Assembly: GCA_018303575.1 (NCBI GenBank)
Contig: JAGVXW010000016.1
Location: 1-38,407 of the forward strand
Reading direction: 5' to 3'
Source of the DNA: Candidatus Woesearchaeota archaeon
GTDB lineage: Archaea > Nanobdellota > Nanobdellia > Woesearchaeales > WJIZ01
Length of the DNA: 38,407 bases
Shown here: positions 3,391-38,407 of the stretch, piece after piece
Layout of the letters: each line of letters opens with the position of its first letter
Position numbering within the stretch: position 1 is the first letter of the stretch
Notes under the pieces: generated by a model
Seen by the model: only the letters and a program-made list of their open reading frames with translations
Database searches by the model: none
Told to the model about the DNA's origin: nothing
Program-made: the position numbers and the translations under genes

Positions 3391-3774
3391 GTGGCCAAGA
3401 AAGAATTCACCTACCGCGGAAAGCGGCTCGAGGAACTGCAGGCGCTGACGCTGGCTGAGATCGGGCAGATGCTGCCATCGCGCGCCAGGCGGAGCCTGAA
3501 GCGCGGCCTCAGGCACGAGCAGAAAGTCGTGCTCGAGAAAGTTGGGGCCAAGGACCCTGACATCAGGACGCACTGCCGTGATTTGGTGGTGCTGCCGGCC
3601 ATGGTCGGAGCCACCATCAAGATCCACACGGGAAAGGAATTTTTCCCTGTCCAGATCCAGCCGGAGATGATCGGCCATTTCCTCGGCGAGTTCGCGCTCA
3701 CCAGGAAAGGAGTGACGCATTCTGCGCCCGGACTGGGAGCGACCAAGAGCAGCTCGAACGTGGCTGTGAAGTAA
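3391..3774 (+). CDS. rps19: 30S ribosomal protein uS19
   Basis: 127 aa, GTG start, ...IKIHTGKEFFPVQIQPEMIGHFLGEFALTRK. Cluster position fits. Confidence 0.93.
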   Translation: MAKKEFTYRGKRLEELQALTLAEIGQMLPSRARRSLKRGLRHEQKVVLEKVGAKDPDIRTHCRDLVVLPAMVGATIKIHTGKEFFPVQIQPEMIGHFLGEFALTRKGVTHSAPGLGATKSSSNVAVK

Positions 3775-3776
3775 CC

Positions 3777-4337
3777 ATGACCTACCACTATACGCACACG
3801 CTGGCAAAGGAGCACACGGCGCAGGCGCTCGGCCTAGGCCTGCCCATCTCCTTCAAGCAAAGCCTGATGATCGCGAACATGGTGCGGAGCAAGCCGCTAA
3901 TAAGAGCTAAAGCGATCCTCCATGATGCCATCGCGCTGAAAGTGCCCATCAAGTTCACCCGCTTCACGAACGCCCTTGGCCACAAGAAGGGCCATTTCGG
4001 CCCTGGAAGATTTCCGCAGAAAGCTGCTGGGCACATCCTCAGCTTATTGGAATCTGCGGAGGCGAACGCGCAGTTCAAGGGGCTGAACACGAGCGGACTG
4101 GTCGTGGAGCATATCGCGGTGCAGGACGGGGGCAACGTGTGGAGATACGGCAGGAGAAGGCGCATCCGCGCCAAGCGCTGCCATATTGAGGTTGTGCTGG
4201 CTGAAGGAAAAGCTGATGACTCAAAAGCAAAGAAAGATGGGGGGAAAGAGCCTCACGAAGAGAAAAAACATGCTCCTCAGATGAAGAAAGAAAAGAAGGA
4301 TGAGAAGAAAACTGAAAAGAAAGGAAGCTCACCATGA
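3777..4337 (+). CDS. rpl22: 50S ribosomal protein uL22 with a ~45-aa Lys/Glu-rich C-terminal tail
   Basis: 186 aa. L22 core (ISFKQSLMIANMVRSKPLIRAKAILHDAI...) followed by KADDSKAKKDGGKEPHEEKKHAPQMKKEKKDEKKTEKKGSSP. Confidence 0.92.
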   Translation: MTYHYTHTLAKEHTAQALGLGLPISFKQSLMIANMVRSKPLIRAKAILHDAIALKVPIKFTRFTNALGHKKGHFGPGRFPQKAAGHILSLLESAEANAQFKGLNTSGLVVEHIAVQDGGNVWRYGRRRRIRAKRCHIEVVLAEGKADDSKAKKDGGKEPHEEKKHAPQMKKEKKDEKKTEKKGSSP

Positions 4338-5215
4338 TCGAAAGAAAATTCGTCGCGGCGAACATGAAGGAATACCTGATCGAGGAGTTCATCAGCCAGA
4401 GCATCCGGGGCGCGGAGCACAGCAAGACCAAGATCCAGCGCACGCCGCTCGGCGAGAAAATCGTGATCTTTTCGTCGCGGCCGGGCATCATCGTCGGAAG
4501 GAAGGGGCAGAGCATCAAGCAGCTCACTAAAGTGCTGAAGAAGCGCTTCAGCCTCGAGAACCCGCAGATCGAGATCGCTGAGGTGCCGAATCCGGCGCTG
4601 GACGCGAACATCATGGCCGAGCGCATCTGCTCCTATCTAGAGCGCTTCGGCATCAGCAAGTTCAAGGGCATCGCGCACCGCATCATGACTGAAGTGATGG
4701 GCGCCGGGGCGATGGGCATCGAGATCAACATGGGCGGGAAAATCCCGAGCTCGCGCGCGAAGAGCTGGAGATTCTACCAGGGCTACCTCAAGAAATGCGG
4801 CGACATCGCGCTCACGGGCGTGCATATCGCACACAAGCAGGCCCTGCTCAAGTCCGGGATCGTCGGGGTGAAGGTGAGCATCATGCCGCCTGAAACCATC
4901 CTGCCTGACAAGATCACGTTCATCGAGGAGAGCGCTCCTGCAACGGCTGAACAGAAAGTTGAGGAGAAGAAGCCGGCGGAAGAGCTGAAAGAAGAGAAAC
5001 CCAAGAGAAAGGCGGCTCCAAGAAAGCGCTCCCCTAAGAAGAAGGCAGAAGGGGAGGGAAAGGCTGGGAAGGGGGAGACAGAAGGGGAGAAAAAAGAAGA
5101 AGTGAAATCGGAGACCGACAAGCCTGCGGCGCCAAATAAGAAGGAAAACAAAGAAGCGAAAGGGAAGGAAGAAGAAAAAGAAAAGGAGCCTGCGAGCGCT
5201 CTTGAGGCAGCATGA
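4334..5215 (+). CDS. rps3: 30S ribosomal protein uS3 with a ~90-aa Lys/Glu-rich C-terminal tail
   Basis: 293 aa. KH-domain S3 core (MIERKFVAANMKEYLIEEFI...), then a low-complexity EEKKPAEELKEEKPKRKAAPRKRSPKKKAEGEGKAGKGETEGEKKEE... tail. Confidence 0.93.
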   Translation: MIERKFVAANMKEYLIEEFISQSIRGAEHSKTKIQRTPLGEKIVIFSSRPGIIVGRKGQSIKQLTKVLKKRFSLENPQIEIAEVPNPALDANIMAERICSYLERFGISKFKGIAHRIMTEVMGAGAMGIEINMGGKIPSSRAKSWRFYQGYLKKCGDIALTGVHIAHKQALLKSGIVGVKVSIMPPETILPDKITFIEESAPATAEQKVEEKKPAEELKEEKPKRKAAPRKRSPKKKAEGEGKAGKGETEGEKKEEVKSETDKPAAPNKKENKEAKGKEEEKEKEPASALEAA

Positions 5216-21912: not shown

Positions 21913-22166
21913 CCACGCCGCGCGGCCTTCAGAAGGCCCTCAGCTGTCCTGATAAGATTTCCTTCCAGATTGCTCGCTGGGGCAAATCGATATGGGGGGA
22001 TGAAACATTTTTGCAATCCATGAAGGAGTCTTAGAAGCTTTGGATAATTTCTATGCTGGAGGACATCGCCAAAGACTGCTCTCCAAGCGGCGGGCACTCT
22101 CAGCTGGCAGAAATGAAGAATAGAGCATTCATCGAAGGCGTACTGATTTTTAGGATCGAGGGCCAT
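21888..22166 (-). CDS. Hypothetical 92-aa ORF (possible remnant)
   Basis: ORF only, no recognisable motif. It starts 1 nt after the stop of the 40-aa ORF upstream. Confidence 0.2.
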   Translation of the reverse strand: MALDPKNQYAFDECSILHFCQLRVPAAWRAVFGDVLQHRNYPKLLRLLHGLQKCFIPPYRFAPASNLEGNLIRTAEGLLKAARRGCRTQSRN

Positions 22167-22167
22167 G

Positions 22168-22290
22168 TTATGCCGGAACCAGTTTTTTCAAGTCTGGATT
22201 TTCCAAAGAAAAGGGGTACTCCTTCACGGAGTTGACGATAAACTGATAGTATTTATTGATTACCCGGGAATCCTTGTCTTTCTTCCCCAT
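22168..22290 (-). CDS. Hypothetical 40-aa ORF (MGKKDKDSRVINKYYQFIVNSVKEYPFSLENPDLKKLVPA)
   Basis: Hand-translated and below the ORF-track cutoff. It starts 11 nt after the stop of the 215-aa gene. Confidence 0.15.
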   Translation of the reverse strand: MGKKDKDSRVINKYYQFIVNSVKEYPFSLENPDLKKLVPA

Positions 22291-22301
22291 TTCTTCTTTA
22301 A

Positions 22302-22949
22302 TCATGGGGATCGCCCTGGAGAGAATATGCAAAAAGCATCATGGTCATACGCTTCTTCCAGCCGTTTGAATCGCTTGTCGCGAAGATATTTTGTCAAATA
22401 ATAGCAATACTCTATCAGCGCCCTCAGCGTGATATTCACTATACTATCTTCCGGTATCTTATCAAGCTCTTGATAGAGGTCATAGAAATCGACGTGCAAC
22501 GTATTGACTTTCTGAAGCAAGGTATCCCTGTCCTCGACCTCTACAAGCAGTTTCCTATGTTCGGTATCGGAAATATCTGAAGCACTCAGTGTGCTCAGAT
22601 GCTGAATCTCCTTCTTGAACGCAAGCAATTCCCCTACTGATAATATTTTCTCCAATTTTGTCCTTATTGTTTTCTCCGCGAGCTCAGTTGCGGGCGGCTT
22701 CATCCGATATCCTATGCATGGAGTTCCGTTATACTCATAAGCGTATTTTTCGAAATAGTCATTTGACGAAAGCTTATCCACATCAGGGCTGAAAGAGCCA
22801 AATTTATTCAGCTTGAATTCAATATCTATTGGGATAAGATGGAGATTAAAGCTGGCCAAGAGCTTATTGAGCAAGGTTTTAGAAGAGATTCTATGATTCG
22901 GGGCAAAGCGCAAAATGAGGCTCATGGCCTCGTCTTTTGTCAACCTCAT
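22302..22949 (-). CDS. Hypothetical protein; the N-terminal ~65 aa resemble a winged-helix Panacea/DUF4065-like module, and the C-terminal part is helical/charged
   Basis: 215 aa. SKTLLNKLLASFNLHLIPIDIEFKLNKFGSFSPDVDKL loosely resembles the LKLQKLLY...F.AW.YGPV.P.VY pattern of DUF4065. Low-GC coding region. This is by-eye similarity only. Confidence 0.6.
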   Translation of the reverse strand: MRLTKDEAMSLILRFAPNHRISSKTLLNKLLASFNLHLIPIDIEFKLNKFGSFSPDVDKLSSNDYFEKYAYEYNGTPCIGYRMKPPATELAEKTIRTKLEKILSVGELLAFKKEIQHLSTLSASDISDTEHRKLLVEVEDRDTLLQKVNTLHVDFYDLYQELDKIPEDSIVNITLRALIEYCYYLTKYLRDKRFKRLEEAYDHDAFCIFSPGRSP

Positions 22950-22971
22950 AAAGGCATGAGCGAGAAAGCCC

Positions 22972-22979
22972 TTTAAATA
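22972..22979 (-). promoter_or_regulatory. TATA box (plus-strand TTTAAATA) for the 215-aa gene, leaderless spacing
   Basis: Centre ~26 nt upstream of the ATG at 22949. Confidence 0.45.
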
Positions 22980-22995
22980 TGTTTCTGAGAAAAAA

Positions 22996-23010
22996 CCGGA
23001 AAGTTTCCGG
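22996..23010. promoter_or_regulatory. Perfect 15-bp palindrome CCGGAAA-G-TTTCCGG in the divergent promoter region; candidate operator
   Basis: Read directly from the sequence. It lies between the two divergent TATA boxes of the island. Confidence 0.4.
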
Positions 23011-23108
23011 GAAATCCGACGGAGATTTTATTAAGGACCATCGCTTTGCGTGCTCACAATGTTTATATAGAAAAGAGCGTTATCCGCCCTTCAGGGGACA
23101 CCCAAAAA

Positions 23109-23117
23109 TTATATAAA
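23109..23117 (+). promoter_or_regulatory. TATA box (TTATATAAA) for the 3-gene cassette; a second TTTATATA lies at 23062-23069
   Basis: Centre ~33 nt upstream of the ATG at 23146. Confidence 0.45.
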
Positions 23118-23145
23118 GCCAGTATACGAAAAGGTAAACATCAGA

Positions 23146-23346
23146 ATGGACGCCAACGAATATGACAGGCTGAAAACAACGTTCCTGCAGCTCTTCCCCA
23201 ATGTGCCCACTCCCTTGAGAACCCAGATTATCGCGGTTGTTGAGAATCATACTTTCAGCTGGTTTACGGCCAAAGAGGAGATTAGCCGGAATGGCCCTTA
23301 CGCAAAGCCCATTTTAAAACAGCTGAAAGAGATGAGGGTGATTTGA
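23146..23346 (+). CDS. Small hypothetical protein (66 aa), distant paralogue of the next gene
   Basis: ORF with its own TATA box, ATGA overlap with the next gene. No recognised family. Confidence 0.55.
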   Translation: MDANEYDRLKTTFLQLFPNVPTPLRTQIIAVVENHTFSWFTAKEEISRNGPYAKPILKQLKEMRVI

Positions 23347-23564
23347 TGACAACCTATGGAGAAGATATCAAGAACCTCGTAAAAGAACGGCTTCGTGCAA
23401 TTCCGGCCAACGTGAGGTTTTCTGTAGGGAGCTATGGAGAGTTTACAAGAGAGCAGCTCATACAGGAAATTGACTTAAATACCCCTATCGGCAAGGACAT
23501 CATAGAGATGCAAGTCAACTTCATACGGGAAATGCCGAAAATCATCGCAAAGGCCTCGAACTAA
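23343..23564 (+). CDS. Small hypothetical protein (73 aa)
   Basis: ORF. 1-nt gap to the next gene. It shares the pattern hK..h...h..hP...R ... T.(K/R)E..I...N.P...K.I with the 66-aa protein. Confidence 0.55.
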   Translation: MMTTYGEDIKNLVKERLRAIPANVRFSVGSYGEFTREQLIQEIDLNTPIGKDIIEMQVNFIREMPKIIAKASN

Positions 23565-23565
23565 G

Positions 23566-24207
23566 ATGCTCCTCATTAGAACAGATCACGATTCTGCGAC
23601 CCATTACCTCTTCGAGGCCTGCCATGAGGTCATCGAAGAAGCCAAACGCAAAGGTTTCCAACCCCTTTGCATAGAATCGAAAGAGATAACCCTAACCACC
23701 ATTCAAAAGAGGGTCAAAAAATCACATCCCAGATTCTTTTTCTTTAACGGGCATGGATCGGACTCGAGCGTCTTCGATAATAAAGGCAAAGAACTGATCG
23801 CGAGAAAGGACGCTGACGTCTTTTCAGAAACGATAGCCTTCACACGTTCCTGCAGCTGTTTGCAAAAATTAGGGGAAGAAGCAGTTAACCAGGGCTGCCG
23901 AAGCTTTATCGGATACCGGAGAAGCTTTTACATCTCGCATCTTGATAGCTATGCGACCCGGCCATTGAAGGATCCGGCAGCGAAGCCAGTACTAGAAACA
24001 TCGAATCTTGTGGCGCTTTCGCTGATAAGAGGAAAAACAGTGGGAGAGTCTATTGAAGCATCAAAAAGAAAGTCCGCAGAATATATTCGAGACTTGAGTT
24101 ATAGCAACGATCCCTATCTATCGGCTACCCTCCCCGCACTGATCAACAATGTCGCGGCATTAGGGTTTTGCGGTGATGAAGGGGCTTCTTTGAACGTAAG
24201 CAAATAG
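23566..24207 (+). CDS. Hypothetical cytoplasmic protein with a caspase/gingipain-like (clan CD) His...Cys signature
   Basis: 213 aa. The alternating beta-alpha pattern MLLIRTD / helix / FQPLCIES / helix / PRFFFFNGHGS (His63-Gly) ... ETIAFTRSCSC (Cys96/Cys98) matches the strand-HG and strand-C topology of clan CD peptidases. GHGS recalls the C25 gingipain motif. No signal peptide. Confidence 0.6.
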   Translation: MLLIRTDHDSATHYLFEACHEVIEEAKRKGFQPLCIESKEITLTTIQKRVKKSHPRFFFFNGHGSDSSVFDNKGKELIARKDADVFSETIAFTRSCSCLQKLGEEAVNQGCRSFIGYRRSFYISHLDSYATRPLKDPAAKPVLETSNLVALSLIRGKTVGESIEASKRKSAEYIRDLSYSNDPYLSATLPALINNVAALGFCGDEGASLNVSK

Positions 24208-30194: not shown

Positions 30195-30701
30195 CTACTT
30201 TGGAGGGGCAAATATCTGCAGGGTATAAAAAGCTGATGGTTGCTTAAAGTTGGACGAGGATGCGGCGATAGTAGCCGGGCTCAAGCTGCCAGGCCGGATC
30301 GCCGTCCGGAAGAGGATCGCGGAGCGGAGGCGCAGGGGCCTGGCGACTAGGTCAACGATGGAGCGTACACTTCCACCATGCTCCACCCTCATGTCCGGAG
30401 GCAAAGACTCGAAATATGCGACCATTGCGTTGAACCAGGGCGGGGGCCCGTACCTCTGTTCCACATAGCGCGGGACTGTTGGAAGAAATTGCTGGAGGAA
30501 CTCCCGAAGGCGCTCGCGATCATACCCGACTCCCATCTGCGATCGCATTGCGTCGTGGAGTTCTGCCTGAAGCCTGACCGTCTGCACGAAGCCGGAAGCA
30601 TCCCCAAACGGAAAATGATTTTCGACAACAATGTCAAGGCCGGCCAAATCCCTGCGCTCTCTCAGCGTATTCGCGACATACGACAGCTTCGCGGGGCGCA
30701 T
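30195..30701 (-). CDS. Hypothetical protein (168 aa), orphan
   Basis: ORF 35 nt downstream of acs. The first two-thirds have a plausible composition. The last ~45 aa are low-complexity and cover the hppA promoter. No recognised family. Confidence 0.35.
30224..30231 (-). promoter_or_regulatory. TATA box (minus strand TTTTTATA) for hppA, with a GGGGTG SD ~8 nt before the ATG
   Basis: Centre ~45 nt upstream of the ATG at 30182. It lies inside the 3' end of the 168-aa ORF. Confidence 0.4.
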
Positions 30702-33870: not shown

Positions 33871-33879
33871 ATTTAAATA
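33871..33879 (+). promoter_or_regulatory. TATA box (ATTTAAATA) for the envelope operon
   Basis: Centre ~44 nt upstream of the ATG at 33919. Confidence 0.45.
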
Positions 33880-33918
33880 GTCTCCCGCTCAGGTTGACGA
33901 CAAGACTTCGGTGATGCC

Positions 33919-35079
33919 ATGCGAAAAGCAGCCATGAATGCCACTATTCTCATCGCCGTGATCTCAGCGCTCATCATCCTCTACATCCTGTTTCTCCCGA
34001 GCGAAGAGAGATTGGATATCATCGGCGAGAACGAAAGCAGCCGTGATTTCGGGCCTGACAAGGAGGATGTGCTCCTGGAGGACACGAGCGTCATCATGGA
34101 GCACTTCGCCGAGGACGAGATTGAGCATACGCTGCCCAGCCTGACGCTGTACAGCATCACCACAGCCAGCACGGTGAAGGAAGTGGCTTCCTTCTATGTC
34201 AAGAAGACGCTGTTCAGCGAGCAGAAACGAGACATCGACTTTGAACTGGGCGAAGAGGCGCAGAACGTGCTGCTCAGCTTCTCCGTGCGGAAGGCGAAGG
34301 GCGATCTTATCGTTGAAGTGAACGGCAAGCAAGTGTGGAGCGGGCCGATTGAGAAAGTGAACGCAGATCCTATCCGCGTGCCAAAAGACGCGCTTTCGAG
34401 CCAGAATACCGTAACGTTCCGGGCCTCGAGCCCCGGCCTCGCCTTCTGGAGGACGCATGAATATTTGATTGAGAATTTCAAGGTGACCGCTGACTTGGTT
34501 GACACGAGCAGCCAGCGCGCCAAAGTGGACTTTGTTGTCGGCAAGGAAGAGGCGGGGCACATTGAAAAAGCTACTTTGCGCTTCGTGGCTGAATGCGAGA
34601 CCGGGAGAGTGGGGGTGCTGGACATCCTGATCAATGACAGGGGCGTCTACAGCTCTGTGCCGGACTGCGGAGTGCCCCGGCCCTTGGTGTTTGACTCCAA
34701 ACTGCTGATCGAGGGCGAGAACACGCTCGAGTTCAGGAGCACAAAGGGGAGATATGTATTGGATCAGCTCAAGATCACCACCAAGCTTGAGGAGATCCCG
34801 AGCTTCACGTATTTCTTCGACGTTGATTCTGACCAGTTCAAGGACATCCGCGAAGGCAGGAAAACGGCCAACTTCACGCTCTTCTTCACCGACGACAAGG
34901 AAGACAAGGCCGCGGAGATCATCATCAATGGCAGGAAAACTTTCATGACGCGGCATGAGGAGTTCGAGTGGAGCCTCATCCTCGACCGGTTCCTGGAGCA
35001 GGGCTCGAACAGCCTGAAGATCATCCCTGACACGCGGCTGGAAGTGAGGCGGCTCCAGGTTGTTCTGGATGACACGTAA
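33919..35079 (+). CDS. Signal-anchored extracytoplasmic protein with three ~95-aa tandem repeat modules
   Basis: 386 aa. N-terminal TM ATILIAVISALIILYILFL. Three modules share ..DF.......L.F.........(L/I).(I/V).(I/V)NG+.V.........(L/F)..G.N.(L/V).F......Y.(L/I)..(L/F)K(I/V). Confidence 0.75.
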   Translation: MRKAAMNATILIAVISALIILYILFLPSEERLDIIGENESSRDFGPDKEDVLLEDTSVIMEHFAEDEIEHTLPSLTLYSITTASTVKEVASFYVKKTLFSEQKRDIDFELGEEAQNVLLSFSVRKAKGDLIVEVNGKQVWSGPIEKVNADPIRVPKDALSSQNTVTFRASSPGLAFWRTHEYLIENFKVTADLVDTSSQRAKVDFVVGKEEAGHIEKATLRFVAECETGRVGVLDILINDRGVYSSVPDCGVPRPLVFDSKLLIEGENTLEFRSTKGRYVLDQLKITTKLEEIPSFTYFFDVDSDQFKDIREGRKTANFTLFFTDDKEDKAAEIIINGRKTFMTRHEEFEWSLILDRFLEQGSNSLKIIPDTRLEVRRLQVVLDDT

Positions 35080-35093
35080 AAAAGAGGTGGCCT

Positions 35094-37163
35094 TTGGATA
35101 GGGCGCAACAGAGGGAGGCAGCAGCTAACGTTCTCGAGTCTGGAGTCGCAGGCCCTGAAGCCATTCCTGTGGGCATGGCGATGAAGGCATGGGGAGCGCG
35201 GAAATGGGAAGGCGCCAAAGCTTCTGCGCGCGACACTAAGGACCGCACTGTCGAAAGCGTGAGAGCGCTTCCGGGGAATGCGTGGGAGGGCATCAAGAGC
35301 CGCGCCTCGGATGCCATAGGCAAGAAATCCTGGGGGAACCTGGGCTTGCTCATGGTCGTTTTTGCTTTCATCATCAACATCTGGCTGGACACTTACTATA
35401 ACTTCGGCGGGTTTGACCTCACCAAGTATGGACAAATCAGCTCTCTAAGCGATCTTGCTGGGATTGCAAGCCTGTATTTCATCATCAAGGGCCCGATTCT
35501 GGTGATGCTCGCGTTAGTGGGGGCGTTCGTGCTCAACCGCGGACATGCCGGGCTGCGGCTTTTTGTCGCGATTGTTGCAGTGACCTACGGCCTCTCGCAG
35601 CTGCCTCTTATCGCGCAAGGCTACCTAGTGATGGCTGGCCTGGACATGCTCGTGTTCCTGGCATTCTGCATCCAGATGCTCACCAATCCCAGCCGCGAGG
35701 AATTCACTGAGAAGATGCTGTTCTGGATTCCTGTATACGGGCTCCTGACCATGAGCCTGGCCTCGGGGAACATGGGCGCTGTCATCCACCTCTCCTTCAT
35801 CATCGCCTTCTATCTTTTCCGCGGAAGGGCGTACAAACAGACAGATCGGGGGTTCCGGCTCAACTTCATCTATCTCGTGCTCTTCGACTTCTTCATCATG
35901 TGGGCACTGCAGTTTGCGCCGACGTACGGCTTTTTCCAGTGGACTGACATCCCGATCCTGCTCCTCGGCACGATGTTCATCGTGCAGATCTATGAGCCGA
36001 GCAAGCTCAGCGGCCTCCTGCTCTTTTTCGTCTGCCTTGGCCTGGTGTTCTCCTTCGGCTATGGCTACCTAGCCTATGCGGCTGGCGACGGAGGAGCGAT
36101 GAAAAGCATTGGTCTTGATGCCGATACCATGGCGCAGCGGTGGGCGATCGTGAACCCCGTCTCCTCCATCTCCAAGCTCGTCAGCGCGATGTATACTGGC
36201 ATCAACCGCAGCATCGCGATCGCGTCCGGGGACTCGTATACGGGAAGCGTGGACGAGAACGCGAAGAAGAAGCTGGGCGTATTTTTGGAGGATGTGGAGA
36301 AGAATCAAAAGCAGTTCACCCAGGGCGACAAGATCGTGCTCTTCGGCACGCTCACCGCTGAAAATCTCGTTGATGCACAGGGCAGGCCGCAGAAGCCGTT
36401 CATGGTGCATACAACGTGCGTCGCCTATAATCTCAAAGGTGAGCCATTTTACGGTGTGATCTACCCCCATGCCGACTTTCAAGTGGAGCAGTATCTTGTT
36501 GAGACGGTGCAGTGCAGCTTCGATCCTGAAAAAGAGATCCCGCTTCCTCCGGGAAGGTATGAGTTGGCCATCCGGGCTGATTTCGAGTTCCTGAGCGAGG
36601 CGTATCTCAAGCGCTACTTCGTCTCAAAGGAACGGGTGGATGCGCTCCGGAGGCAGCGGCAGATCGAGAAGGACGAGGACATCCTCACGCTCAACGGCAT
36701 CTCCGACACCAGGCCAGAGGCGGAGAGCAGCGCCGGGCCGGTGAAGATCAAGGCGAGCGACCGCATCCCTGCTGTCCTGAAGCTCGGCAACGACTCCACC
36801 ATCCTTTATTTCGGCCTCCTGCTCGAGAATGCCTGGAAGGGCGCGATCCAGAACATCACCGAAGTGAGGATCTCCGTGCCTGAAGGCATTGAAATAGAGA
36901 ACTGCGCGCCCTATGAGATCGGCGGGCGGGAAGACCTTCCTGAGGAGAGATACAGTGTTTACAGCATCGCGCCGCGCACCGGGGCGCAGACCGCATATAC
37001 CACCGTGCCCTGCTACCTCAATCTTCCATCGAGCAACGGCCTGCTGCTCGACCAGGGGGAGGTCACGACGCGCTATTTCCGGATAGCGGCGCTCTACAAT
37101 TACACGCTTGAGCAGAGATTCATGATGCGCGTGCTCGAGCCTTCTGCGCCGGTGAGTCCATGA
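35094..37163 (+). CDS. Polytopic (~9 TM) membrane protein with a ~360-aa C-terminal extracytoplasmic domain
   Basis: 689 aa. TTG start 5 nt after the GAGGTG SD (35084-35089). ~85-aa charged N-terminus, nine hydrophobic segments (aa ~83-330), then a soluble two-module domain. Confidence 0.75.
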   Translation: MDRAQQREAAANVLESGVAGPEAIPVGMAMKAWGARKWEGAKASARDTKDRTVESVRALPGNAWEGIKSRASDAIGKKSWGNLGLLMVVFAFIINIWLDTYYNFGGFDLTKYGQISSLSDLAGIASLYFIIKGPILVMLALVGAFVLNRGHAGLRLFVAIVAVTYGLSQLPLIAQGYLVMAGLDMLVFLAFCIQMLTNPSREEFTEKMLFWIPVYGLLTMSLASGNMGAVIHLSFIIAFYLFRGRAYKQTDRGFRLNFIYLVLFDFFIMWALQFAPTYGFFQWTDIPILLLGTMFIVQIYEPSKLSGLLLFFVCLGLVFSFGYGYLAYAAGDGGAMKSIGLDADTMAQRWAIVNPVSSISKLVSAMYTGINRSIAIASGDSYTGSVDENAKKKLGVFLEDVEKNQKQFTQGDKIVLFGTLTAENLVDAQGRPQKPFMVHTTCVAYNLKGEPFYGVIYPHADFQVEQYLVETVQCSFDPEKEIPLPPGRYELAIRADFEFLSEAYLKRYFVSKERVDALRRQRQIEKDEDILTLNGISDTRPEAESSAGPVKIKASDRIPAVLKLGNDSTILYFGLLLENAWKGAIQNITEVRISVPEGIEIENCAPYEIGGREDLPEERYSVYSIAPRTGAQTAYTTVPCYLNLPSSNGLLLDQGEVTTRYFRIAALYNYTLEQRFMMRVLEPSAPVSP

Positions 37164-38128
37164 AATGGATTCTCTTCCTCTCCTTGCTGCTGCTCACGGC
37201 CTGCATAGATGCCGGAACCACTTCCGACGAAAAGCTGCATACGGGCACTGAAGGGATTGTGCTGAACTTTCCTGAGGACGGCCTGACTGAGGAGATCGTC
37301 GAGGGGGAGCGCTTTGTGATTCCGCTCATCCTTGAGAACAAAGGGGCGGCTGACGTGAGCAGGGACGCGCCGGCTGTGCTGCAGTTGTCGCTTGAGCCTG
37401 ACGTGATGATCTTCTCATTATGGGACATCACGCCAGAGATGCGCGAATCCGGACAGAGCGTACTGTTCCCTTTGAACGGGAAAGCGCTGGCGACGATCGC
37501 CGGCGAAAAGACGCGGCTCCGAGCTTTGCTTCAGGCCAAGCCCATTGACCCGACGCTTAATAAGATAGAGACGCGGGTGCTGTTCTCGGCCTGCTATCCT
37601 TATCTGACCCAGCTTGAGGAGCAAACCTGCATCGATCCCAAGCCGGATAGCTTAATCAGAAAGAGTTGCACTCCTGAGACTCTTGAGAGCGATGAGGGGC
37701 AGGGCGCGCCTGTGGCAATCACGGAAGTGAAGCAGACCATGCTTCCAGGGGACCATCCTGACGACGTGCGTGTGCAGTTCCTGATCACCGCGAAGAACGC
37801 CGGAGAAGGGGTTTTGCTGCACCATGAAGATTATCCTTTGGCCTGCCTCGGAAGGGACGGCTCGAAGAAGCCGGGGATTTATGTGACCAAGGTCGCGTTT
37901 TCCGACTTTTCCTTCATTGAAGGCAAGGGCGGGGACATCGAATGCAACCCCCAGCCCATGCGAGAGATCGAGGACGGCTTCGAGACGCGATGCACGCTGA
38001 ATAATGGCATCCCCCGGAGCACGCCAGCTTTTACGACTCCGCTCAGCATTGAACTGCGCTATGGATATAGAGAGACGATCTCGCACGAATTGAGCATCTT
38101 AAGCGCGACGGCGGAAAGGGATTCGTAG
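37160..38128 (+). CDS. Predicted lipoprotein, paralogous to the ectodomain of the preceding membrane protein
   Basis: 322 aa. MKWILFLSLLLLTAC has a lipobox L-T-A-C. ATGA overlap with the upstream stop. The module GIVLNFPEDGLTEEIVEGERFVIPLILENKG parallels GVFLEDVEKNQKQFTQGDKIVLFGTLTAENL in the upstream protein. Confidence 0.75.
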   Translation: MKWILFLSLLLLTACIDAGTTSDEKLHTGTEGIVLNFPEDGLTEEIVEGERFVIPLILENKGAADVSRDAPAVLQLSLEPDVMIFSLWDITPEMRESGQSVLFPLNGKALATIAGEKTRLRALLQAKPIDPTLNKIETRVLFSACYPYLTQLEEQTCIDPKPDSLIRKSCTPETLESDEGQGAPVAITEVKQTMLPGDHPDDVRVQFLITAKNAGEGVLLHHEDYPLACLGRDGSKKPGIYVTKVAFSDFSFIEGKGGDIECNPQPMREIEDGFETRCTLNNGIPRSTPAFTTPLSIELRYGYRETISHELSILSATAERDS

Positions 38129-38149
38129 TCAAAGATTTCTTATTTGATG

Positions 38150-38235
38150 TAGCGCCGGCAGTGGCGGTGCGACGGCTTTTTCTATGAAAAAGCCTACTCA
38201 GGCAAAGCCTTCGCCGCACGCCAGAGCCGGCGCTA
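38150..38235. repeat. 86-nt imperfect palindrome / extended hairpin (10+5+4 nested bp, apical hairpin GGCTTTTT-CTATG-AAAAAGCC at 38174-38194)
   Basis: Paired by hand: TAGCGCCGGC/GCCGGCGCTA, TGGCG/CGCCA, TGCG/CGCA. It starts 22 nt after the stop of the lipoprotein gene. Confidence 0.5.
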
Positions 38236-38306
38236 TGCTCGACGCACGTATCCTCATAATTTTTGCAACGATATACCCCCTATGCGTCTCGTAATAAGCG
38301 AGCGCA

Positions 38307-38313
38307 TTTATAC
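38307..38313 (+). promoter_or_regulatory. TATA-like box (TTTATAC) ~25 nt upstream of a 14-bp hairpin
   Basis: Sequence motif and spacing only. Confidence 0.3.
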
Positions 38314-38331
38314 TCACGGACAAAAATAATT

Positions 38332-38378
38332 ATAGCAAATCGCAGAAATAATCGAACTTTTTGCCTGCGATTTGCTAT
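38332..38378. repeat. Perfect 14-bp inverted repeat ATAGCAAATCGCAG / CTGCGATTTGCTAT with a 19-nt loop
   Basis: Read directly: arms at 38332-38345 and 38365-38378. Confidence 0.6.
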
Positions 38379-38407
38379 TCTAGCGAATCCTCGACCGTAG
38401 GGAGAGG

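Follow-up and report, generated by a model that had tools for sequence, protein, structure and literature searches.

What kind of surface structure, if any, do three adjacent genes of an uncultured archaeon specify when none of their products matches a described protein family? The question is raised by a 38,407-nucleotide contig (JAGVXW010000016.1; the whole stretch is referred to as the window), in which three open reading frames (ORFs) lie together on the plus strand: g1 (33919-35079, 386 amino acids, aa), g2 (35094-37163, 689 aa, TTG start) and g3 (37160-38128, 322 aa). An earlier note, made from the sequence alone, had taken them for a novel three-gene operon encoding a surface complex in a reduced archaeal genome. 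The last point agrees with what is known of the source, a reduced DPANN archaeon; the NCBI protein identical to g2, hypothetical protein J4419_01760, carries the label Candidatus Woesearchaeota archaeon, and several groundwater metagenome assemblies contain the same locus.

Woesearchaeota are tiny symbiotic archaea. Together with Pacearchaeota they are among the most widespread uncultured archaea, and the question of whether they live on bacteria, and by what means they attach, has rested mostly on scattered SLT genes (PMC8204110, PMC9723730). We report that g1-g3 belong to a conserved, same-strand and tightly coupled module of five genes, g1-g5, that is vertically inherited and nearly clade-wide in Woesearchaeota (GTDB Nanoarchaeota). 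SLT proteins are now placed in this one surface module, which occupies the same chromosomal site with or without a hydrolase. The reading that we favour, at a little short of even chances, is that the products form a clade-wide hetero-oligomeric envelope complex with g2 as its base and an outer tip that touches bacterial cell walls, and to which g1 would contribute carbohydrate binding and a pilin-type signal.

The five-gene module and its conservation

Profiles were built from the three protein families and searched against every ORF of all retrieved loci. The order g1-g2-g3-g4-g5, on one strand, was recovered at L007, L010, L012, L013, L015, L016, L017, L018, L020, L022 and L023, and at a twelfth locus, L019, the g2 slot is filled by a divergent 896-aa protein of the same architecture. 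The two additional genes encode proteins of approximately 310-340 aa each, lie on the same strand as g3 and are followed by a convergent gene for the small subunit of RFC (RFC-S); these lipobox paralogues are present in every related contig that reaches far enough past g3, and the operon boundary that the earlier note had drawn after three genes does not hold. On the other side, the pelota gene (eRF1 domains 1-3, Pfam) is the divergent neighbour 5' of g1, such that the cluster in the relatives is flanked by the housekeeping genes pelota and RFC-S. The conserved synteny that had been proposed as a check was observed, i.e., neither gene order nor strand changes among genomes with a GC content between 35 and 60% and an identity of g1 to the reference that ranges from 79% down to approximately 31%.

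The signals that couple the genes were as previously described, and several of them recur in the relatives. Specifically, a TATA box (ATTTAAATA, 33871-33879, plus strand) was read from the sequence 40-48 nt 5' of the g1 ATG, and a TTTAWATA box precedes g1 at 12 of the 12 related loci, including those in genomes with a GC content of 54-60%. A Shine-Dalgarno-like element, GGTGAT (33910-33915, plus strand), is located 3 nt 5' of the g1 ATG, and GGTGA is again found upstream of g1 at several related loci. The 14-nt gap between g1 and g2 includes the Shine-Dalgarno element GAGGTG (35084-35089, plus strand) 4 nt 5' of the TTG start, and the identical gap is present in L012 and L016, while an ATGA overlap joins the end of g2 to the start of g3 and a g2/g3 overlap is seen in most of the 12 loci. 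Taken together with the predicted location of the products, these genes constitute a dedicated, co-inherited, extracytoplasmic module.

In the window, the contig breaks 279 bp 3' of g3, and this non-coding tail (38129-38407, no strand assigned) holds no g4 start, no Rfam family and no detected tRNA. Independent assemblies of the window population (including L001, L002, L003 and L006) all end 95-321 bp past the g3 stop codon; hence, g4 and g5 are missing because the assembly breaks here and not because the operon is organised differently. What lies between g3 and the expected g4 and g5 is probably a repeat, an insertion sequence (IS) element or strain-variable DNA.

In a marine Woesearchaeon (L008/L009, 6067-13089) the cluster is rearranged with no g1 upstream; its g3 homologue, at 549 aa, has additional Ig-like repeats at the C-terminus, and g3 and g4 are separated by an unrelated gene of 369 aa that runs on the other strand. 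The L019 record (CAYMBN010000005.1) is labelled 'uncultured Methanosarcinales archaeon' yet has the Woesearchaeal g1-g5 cluster, and the metagenome-assembled genome it comes from is probably mis-binned or mislabelled.

Murein hydrolase domains on g2 and the proposed complex

The central protein of the module is g2 (35094-37163, plus strand), a polytopic membrane protein with a large ectodomain, for which an AlphaFold2 model (83 sequences) reached a pLDDT of 82.6 overall and approximately 96 in its beta-sandwiches. The model, together with conservation and loop charge, suggests the following layout on the plus strand: a K/R-rich cytoplasmic N-terminus of family-variable length and low model confidence (aa 1-82, 35094-35339), a domain of nine transmembrane (TM) helices (aa 83-329, 35340-36080), an extracellular helical stalk (aa 330-394, 36081-36275, modelled as helical over aa 343-390) and an ectodomain (36276-37160) in which a helical linker connects two beta-sandwiches (aa 395-511 and 550-681). 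The stalk ends in the most conserved motif of the family, with the consensus ATGGYYxGxVExN...LGV (window version SGDSYTGSVDEN). The K/R residues of g2 are confined to the N-terminus and to alternate short, predicted cytoplasmic loops, as expected for an N-in/C-out topology, and g1 has one N-terminal TM segment according to hydropathy; the external position of the large domains, as read by the earlier note, is borne out by these patterns. This positive-inside pattern, the conserved Cys pairs and the invariant lipobox Cys lead to the prediction that every product lies outside the cell and is tethered to the membrane; the pairs include Cys442/Cys474 and Cys604/Cys640 in the g2 sandwiches (invariant or near-invariant). 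A DsbD-type transmembrane protein gene is located a few genes 3' of the cluster in L022 (16490-17206), and although the linkage is seen in this one locus only it is in keeping with the extracellular disulfide pairs that are conserved in g1-g5.

A word-indexed search returned only four relatives of g2, and an exhaustive profile search gave 917 cluster representatives at E<=1e-3 and 234 at E<=1e-30; the named family members are all Nanoarchaeota/Nanoarchaeia. The cytoplasmic N-terminus varies between 5 and approximately 390 residues across the family and in some members forms a long K/E-rich coiled coil (e.g. L019, 11150-13840), suggesting a variable connection to some component within the cell.

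Most g2 homologues run 100-560 residues past the conserved core. Of 54 such long homologues that were scanned, 12 have a murein hydrolase domain, with SLT in eight, NlpC/P60 in two, and Peptidase_M23 and Amidase_3 in one each, and the hydrolase domains are C-terminal to the g2 core wherever their position was checked. Moreover, P0139 (1017 aa, SLT and Amidase_3) and an SLT protein of 1146 aa in L010 are both encoded between g1 and g3 within the pelota, g1-g5, RFC arrangement, and this shared location identifies the hydrolase-bearing proteins as true orthologues of g2. Four unrelated families of murein-acting enzymes have thus been gained independently at the same exposed end of g2, and these fusions are the only functional lead for the module.

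Murein is, to our knowledge, not made by archaea. VirB1 of type IV secretion systems, EtgA of type III secretion systems and FlgJ, which are specialised lytic transglycosylases of machines that span the envelope, and the hydrolases of phage virions are murein hydrolases that are attached to a surface or trans-envelope apparatus and act locally. VirB1, EtgA and FlgJ open the wall of the producer whereas the phage enzymes open that of the host, and none of the other components of these systems is homologous to the module; for an archaeal producer without murein, the target of the hydrolase would therefore have to be another cell.

This agrees with what has been proposed for large SLT proteins of Pace- and Woesearchaeota, namely attachment to bacterial cell walls (PMC8204110), with the linking of SLT proteins to possible attachment to bacteria (PMC9723730) and with the prominence of peptidoglycan hydrolases in Nanoarchaeota (PMC12352652). 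The large lytic transglycosylases of Castelle et al. 2021 resemble the hydrolase-bearing g2 proteins in that they come from the same lineages and are large, membrane-bound and extracellular with an SLT domain (PMC8204110). That family was defined by its SLT domain, however, and the core of nine TM helices, stalk and beta-sandwiches, the majority that lacks a hydrolase and the five-gene cluster are not described there. The Castelle family, fam00969, probably includes the hydrolase-bearing g2 orthologues. Our literature search found no description of the conserved g2 core or of the five-gene cluster.

The cell-wall-cutting enzymes of the relatives suggest that the module may serve docking onto bacteria. 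In the complex that we favour, the products of g1-g5 would assemble as one hetero-oligomer outside the cytoplasmic membrane. Here g2 would be the membrane-embedded base, with its nine TM helices, its helical stalk and the two outward beta-sandwiches, and g3, g4 and g5 would be non-redundant lipid-anchored paralogues packed around the g2 ectodomain. The g1 protein, inserted or processed via its pilin-type signal, would supply three jelly-rolls that are similar to domains for sugar binding. At its distal C-terminus, g2 would then end in an exposed and fast-evolving tip that has received extra domains, including murein hydrolases, in many lineages, and the complex as a whole would be a platform for touching bacterial walls, which the lineages equipped with hydrolases might digest locally (in episymbiosis, predation or scavenging); the g2 of the window would be an unarmed version of this platform. 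That the proteins assemble physically, that g1 acts as a lectin and is processed like a pilin, and that bacteria are contacted are all steps that we infer. A stronger version, in which the module is an undescribed, clade-defining surface machine of Woesearchaeota and Pacearchaeota that consists of a base of nine TM helices with a new fold, three ancient lipoprotein paralogues and a lectin with a pilin signal, and both docks onto and breaches the murein of bacterial partners, appears doubtful; if it held, the module would be the molecular apparatus of an episymbiosis or predation of archaea on bacteria.

Several observations weigh against the platform as outlined. The g2 protein of the window has no SLT, NlpC/P60, M23 or Amidase_3 domain according to Pfam, and most members of the g2 family also have no hydrolase domain, which means that murein contact may have been added in particular lineages and need not be the core function. 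The g1 protein, the obvious candidate for an adhesin, is among the most conserved subunits of the cluster, which argues against a host-specific adhesin, and the good conservation of g1, g4 and g5 is more in keeping with a housekeeping role in the envelope than with the recognition of specific hosts. An anchor would not need nine TM helices with the conserved residues D99, H232 and D265; these may point to an activity in catalysis or transport for which the model does not account. Furthermore, genes for PilB, PilC, a prepilin peptidase, a pilus ATPase or a pilus platform are not found among the called neighbours at any locus. A shared origin of the g2 ectodomain and g3-g5 is possible, since hhalign gave a collinear end-to-end alignment (E=1.2e-3, 19% probability); a test of hidden Markov model versus sequence was no better than the reversed-sequence control.

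The earlier suggestion of a surface complex for adhesion or host contact, envelope assembly or uptake thus stands in part. A dedicated module is what we find, and host contact has one independent line of support, the g2 orthologues with four families of murein hydrolases; adhesion, envelope assembly and uptake are options between which the data do not distinguish. The module constitutes a defined, testable set of proteins with which the lifestyle of a very abundant uncultured archaeal group can be addressed, and it adds five sizeable unannotated protein families, including a domain of nine TM helices without detectable relative.

Predicted folds and competing readings

The g1, g2 and g3 proteins have no Pfam or NCBIfam match, as the earlier note had anticipated when it recognised no family motif. 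Scans of g1-g5 against Pfam, NCBIfam, PADLOC and PHROGs gave nothing meaningful, sequence searches of the PDB, whether with individual proteins or with family profiles, gave noise only, and no viral relatives of the module were present on IMG/VR contigs. An anti-phage defence system or phage protein was rejected on these grounds, with no PADLOC or PHROGs match and nothing for g2 in BFVD at E<=0.001. Four readings that compete with the platform, and that overlap in part, can be weighed against the predicted folds of the subunits.

For g2, Foldseek against the PDB returned only generic tandem beta-sandwiches (VPS26, integrin alpha leg domains, RbmA and the soluble domain of Pyrococcus furiosus AglB) with E-values of approximately 1e-5 and TM-scores of about <=0.15, no listed match appears to span the TM domain, and nothing was found in BFVD at E<=0.001; the nine-TM domain is without detectable relative. 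Conserved residues in this domain (D99, F104, G106, H232, D265-F-F and P287) are all located towards its outer face. A profile match of the family to presenilin-1 (E=8.5e-4) turned out to be a low-accuracy hydrophobic alignment (accuracy 0.54) in which D265 is not aligned to the catalytic Asp, and the YD and GxGD motifs are absent, so a presenilin/GxGD protease was rejected.

The same conserved polar residues could speak for an uptake system, in which the g2 TM domain would be a permease or channel for molecules derived from the host (e.g. muropeptides, sugars or lipids) and the extracellular domains of g1-g5 would capture or funnel the substrate. The nine TM helices with D99, H232, D265 and P287 and the sugar-binding-type folds of g1 are consistent with such a role, DPANN genomes rely on imported metabolites (PMC9723730), and hydrolase fusions would free substrates beside the membrane. 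No transporter family was matched in Pfam, NCBIfam or the PDB beyond noise level, however, the cluster has no ATPase or energy-coupling partner, and beta-sandwich lipoproteins are unlike known substrate-binding proteins, and we therefore consider uptake quite unlikely.

Glycan processing would assign the g2 TM domain to an outward-facing enzyme of GT-C, Wzy or ligase type that uses lipid-linked donors, with g1 as a BcsB-like partner. The arrangement in which a conserved acidic residue (D99) marks the outer end of TM helix 1 and a conserved F-x-G loop containing two short helices comes next recalls such enzymes, as does the conserved aromatic/Gly motif after the last TM helix, and Foldseek matched g2 to the C-terminal domain of AglB and g1 to BcsB and AftD. 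Set against this, there is no STT3, PMT, Wzy or BcsB match in Pfam, the family profile matches no GT-C sequence in the PDB even at E<=10, no full-length GT-C structure is among the best 50 listed Foldseek matches, and the TM-scores of g2 are low; the probability of this reading is accordingly small. For AglB/STT3 in particular, the WWDYG motif is absent from g2, in agreement with the earlier note, and ATGGYYxGxVExN is found at the corresponding place. In addition, there are nine helices versus 13 and no Pfam match, and the likeness to P. furiosus AglB detected by Foldseek is restricted to its soluble beta domain (TM-score about 0.14-0.19), so this identity was rejected.

The g1 protein (33919-35079, plus strand) is predicted to be membrane-anchored and to combine a pilin-like signal with three repeats of jelly-roll type. 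Its AlphaFold2 model (82-sequence alignment, pLDDT 88) consists of a single N-terminal helix and three beta-sandwich domains, with repeats D1 (aa 48-197, 34060-34509), D2 (aa 198-293, 34510-34797, including an invariant Cys226/Cys250 pair) and D3 (aa 294-386, 34798-35076), delimited by hhalign and, for D1 and D2, the model as well. The repeats are homologous (D1-D2, E=1.2e-9; D2-D3, E=4.4e-5), which confirms the repeat protein described earlier. More than 100 g1 homologues with 30-79% identity were found, most of them approximately 390 aa long and a minority of 553-581 aa, and all are without a Pfam domain. In the PDB, Foldseek matched g1 best to GH35 beta-galactosidases in their beta-sandwich domains, to BcsB in its carbohydrate-binding domains, and to reelin repeats and PNGase F (E-values 1e-7 to 1e-4), and since the TM-scores are only approximately 0.2 (<=0.25) the likeness is at the domain level only.

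BcsB chains were among these matches with E-values of 5e-6 to 1e-4 (TM-score approximately 0.2, domain level only), and BcsA-BcsB resembles the g1/g2 pair in that a polytopic protein is combined with a jelly-roll carbohydrate-binding partner anchored by a single TM segment. The module differs in having no GT2, PilZ or Pfam BcsB component, and BcsB is anchored C-terminally whereas g1 is anchored N-terminally. The identity of g1 as BcsB was rejected, there being no Pfam match and no GT2 gene in the cluster in addition to the N-terminal anchor.

The N-terminus of g1 in the window (aa 1-27, 33919-33999, plus strand) reads MRKA-AMNA followed by a hydrophobic helix that ends in LP, and according to hydropathy and the family motif it is a class III-like signal or anchor. 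Conservation in this region was unexpected, with the family consensus KKAQxGxNAAxLVAIIAxLIILYILFLPxxER. The motif [KR][GA]Q, in the forms KAQ, KGQ, RGQ and RAQ, is present directly on the N-terminal side of the hydrophobic helix in 82 of 103 homologues, while most of the others have x[GAS]Q; the statement that there is no class III pilin signal thus fails at the family level. In the clade of the window the Q has been lost (RKA-AMNA), such that K-A-A-M is followed by the helix. The FlaFind pattern of Szabo and colleagues (2007) reportedly consists of a charged residue, G or A at -1 and then a hydrophobic helix, and in this form it still matches the window protein. Processing sites of EppA-type archaeal pilins include RAQI, KGQV, KGQL and KGQI with a conserved +1 Gln (PMC4371748), and g1 carries, at the family level, what by its sequence is a class III, EppA-like pilin-type signal with putative cleavage.

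The N-terminus would be accounted for if g1 were a large tip or minor pilin with lectin domains of a type IV pilus-related system, its machinery encoded elsewhere and g2-g5 acting as a dock. The [KR][GA]Q motif, the polar residue near +5 and the conserved hydrophobic helix point in this direction, and the motif agrees with the EppA-type processing sites (PMC4371748). Like most g1 homologues, the EppA-processed pilins EpdA-E of Methanococcus maripaludis have an RAQ/KGQ site and then a hydrophobic helix (PMC4371748). In contrast, g1 is far larger, with approximately 360 external residues in three jelly-rolls, and has N and not E near +5. The Q is lost in the clade of the window, the motif could equally be a conserved feature of a signal anchor, and PilB, PilC and prepilin-peptidase genes adjoin none of the loci (they might be located elsewhere in the genome). 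We regard a pilus as the most improbable of the four.

The third gene, g3 (37160-38128, plus strand), encodes a predicted lipoprotein, and family alignment and positional orthology identify it as the first of three ancient paralogues. Its signal peptide and lipobox, L-T-A-C with Cys15, correspond to 37160-37204 (plus strand). The lipobox noted previously is a feature of the entire g3-g5 family, where the Cys is invariant (24/24) and the pattern [LVI][ASTVI][GAS]C fits 23 members; six further Cys are conserved in the alignment. When g3, g4 and g5 of L012 are compared with six other genomes, each has its top score with its positional counterpart, which argues that the triplication is older than the divergence of these lineages and that all three copies have persisted, as would be the case if they were fixed subunits of a single assembly. 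Both g4 and g5 are well conserved, and neither library nor sequence searches gave a family or PDB match for g3-g5.

These lipid-anchored proteins, together with g1 and g2, could instead be blocks or anchors of a surface layer (S-layer) or of a membrane-proximal lattice, on which hydrolases are merely displayed. The conservation, which is near clade-wide, single-locus and housekeeping-like, would suit a structural role of this kind, as would the membrane and lipid anchors and the beta-sandwich/Ig-like and DUF11/CARDB-like folds, which are typical of archaeal surface proteins; moreover, not a single S-layer protein of a DPANN archaeon has so far been determined (bioRxiv 10.1101/2023.10.27.564410). 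The SlaA/SlaB pairs are comparable in that they are membrane-anchored beta-sandwich surface proteins encoded by adjacent genes. They differ from the module, for which there is no sequence or specific fold match to them and which comprises five subunits, including a protein with nine TM helices and three lipoproteins, with few sequons. The small number of N-glycosylation sequons (three in g1, of which one is within the TM helix, four in g2 and none in g3) speaks against an S-layer, the subunits are small and short-tethered, and S-layer proteins do not typically comprise five fixed and distinct subunits with a nine-TM base that carries conserved polar residues. A structural layer is unlikely, but the most probable of the four.

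The features that the module shares with the named systems are the class III-like signal motif of g1 and the lipoboxes of g3-g5 only, both of which are generic. Since the comparisons with AglB/GT-C, BcsB, presenilin, transporters, defence systems and phage proteins all failed, the module is of no known kind with respect to gene families and architecture, with a putative function and building blocks of common folds, and the earlier proposal of a candidate novel system is supported, given that no characterised system was matched by sequence or fold.

Chromosomal surroundings

The remainder of the window encodes core housekeeping functions, i.e. the ribosomal proteins L3, L4 and L2, SecY, both PheRS subunits, a P-type ATPase, an H+-pyrophosphatase and acetyl-CoA synthetase. 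In L005, a variant of the window population, an IS66-family transposase and a DUF2080 gene are inserted between the acetyl-CoA synthetase and pelota genes (3490-5000), and mobile elements are therefore active at the window locus. The region 22000-24000 of the window has a GC content of 0.43-0.46 compared to approximately 0.55-0.60 elsewhere, the ORFs in this low-GC stretch (22302-22949, minus strand, and 23566-24207, plus strand) have no Pfam match, and the region may represent foreign or fast-evolving DNA. Finally, a 168-aa ORF without a Pfam domain (30195-30701, minus strand), located between the H+-pyrophosphatase and acetyl-CoA synthetase genes, is present in all related contigs.

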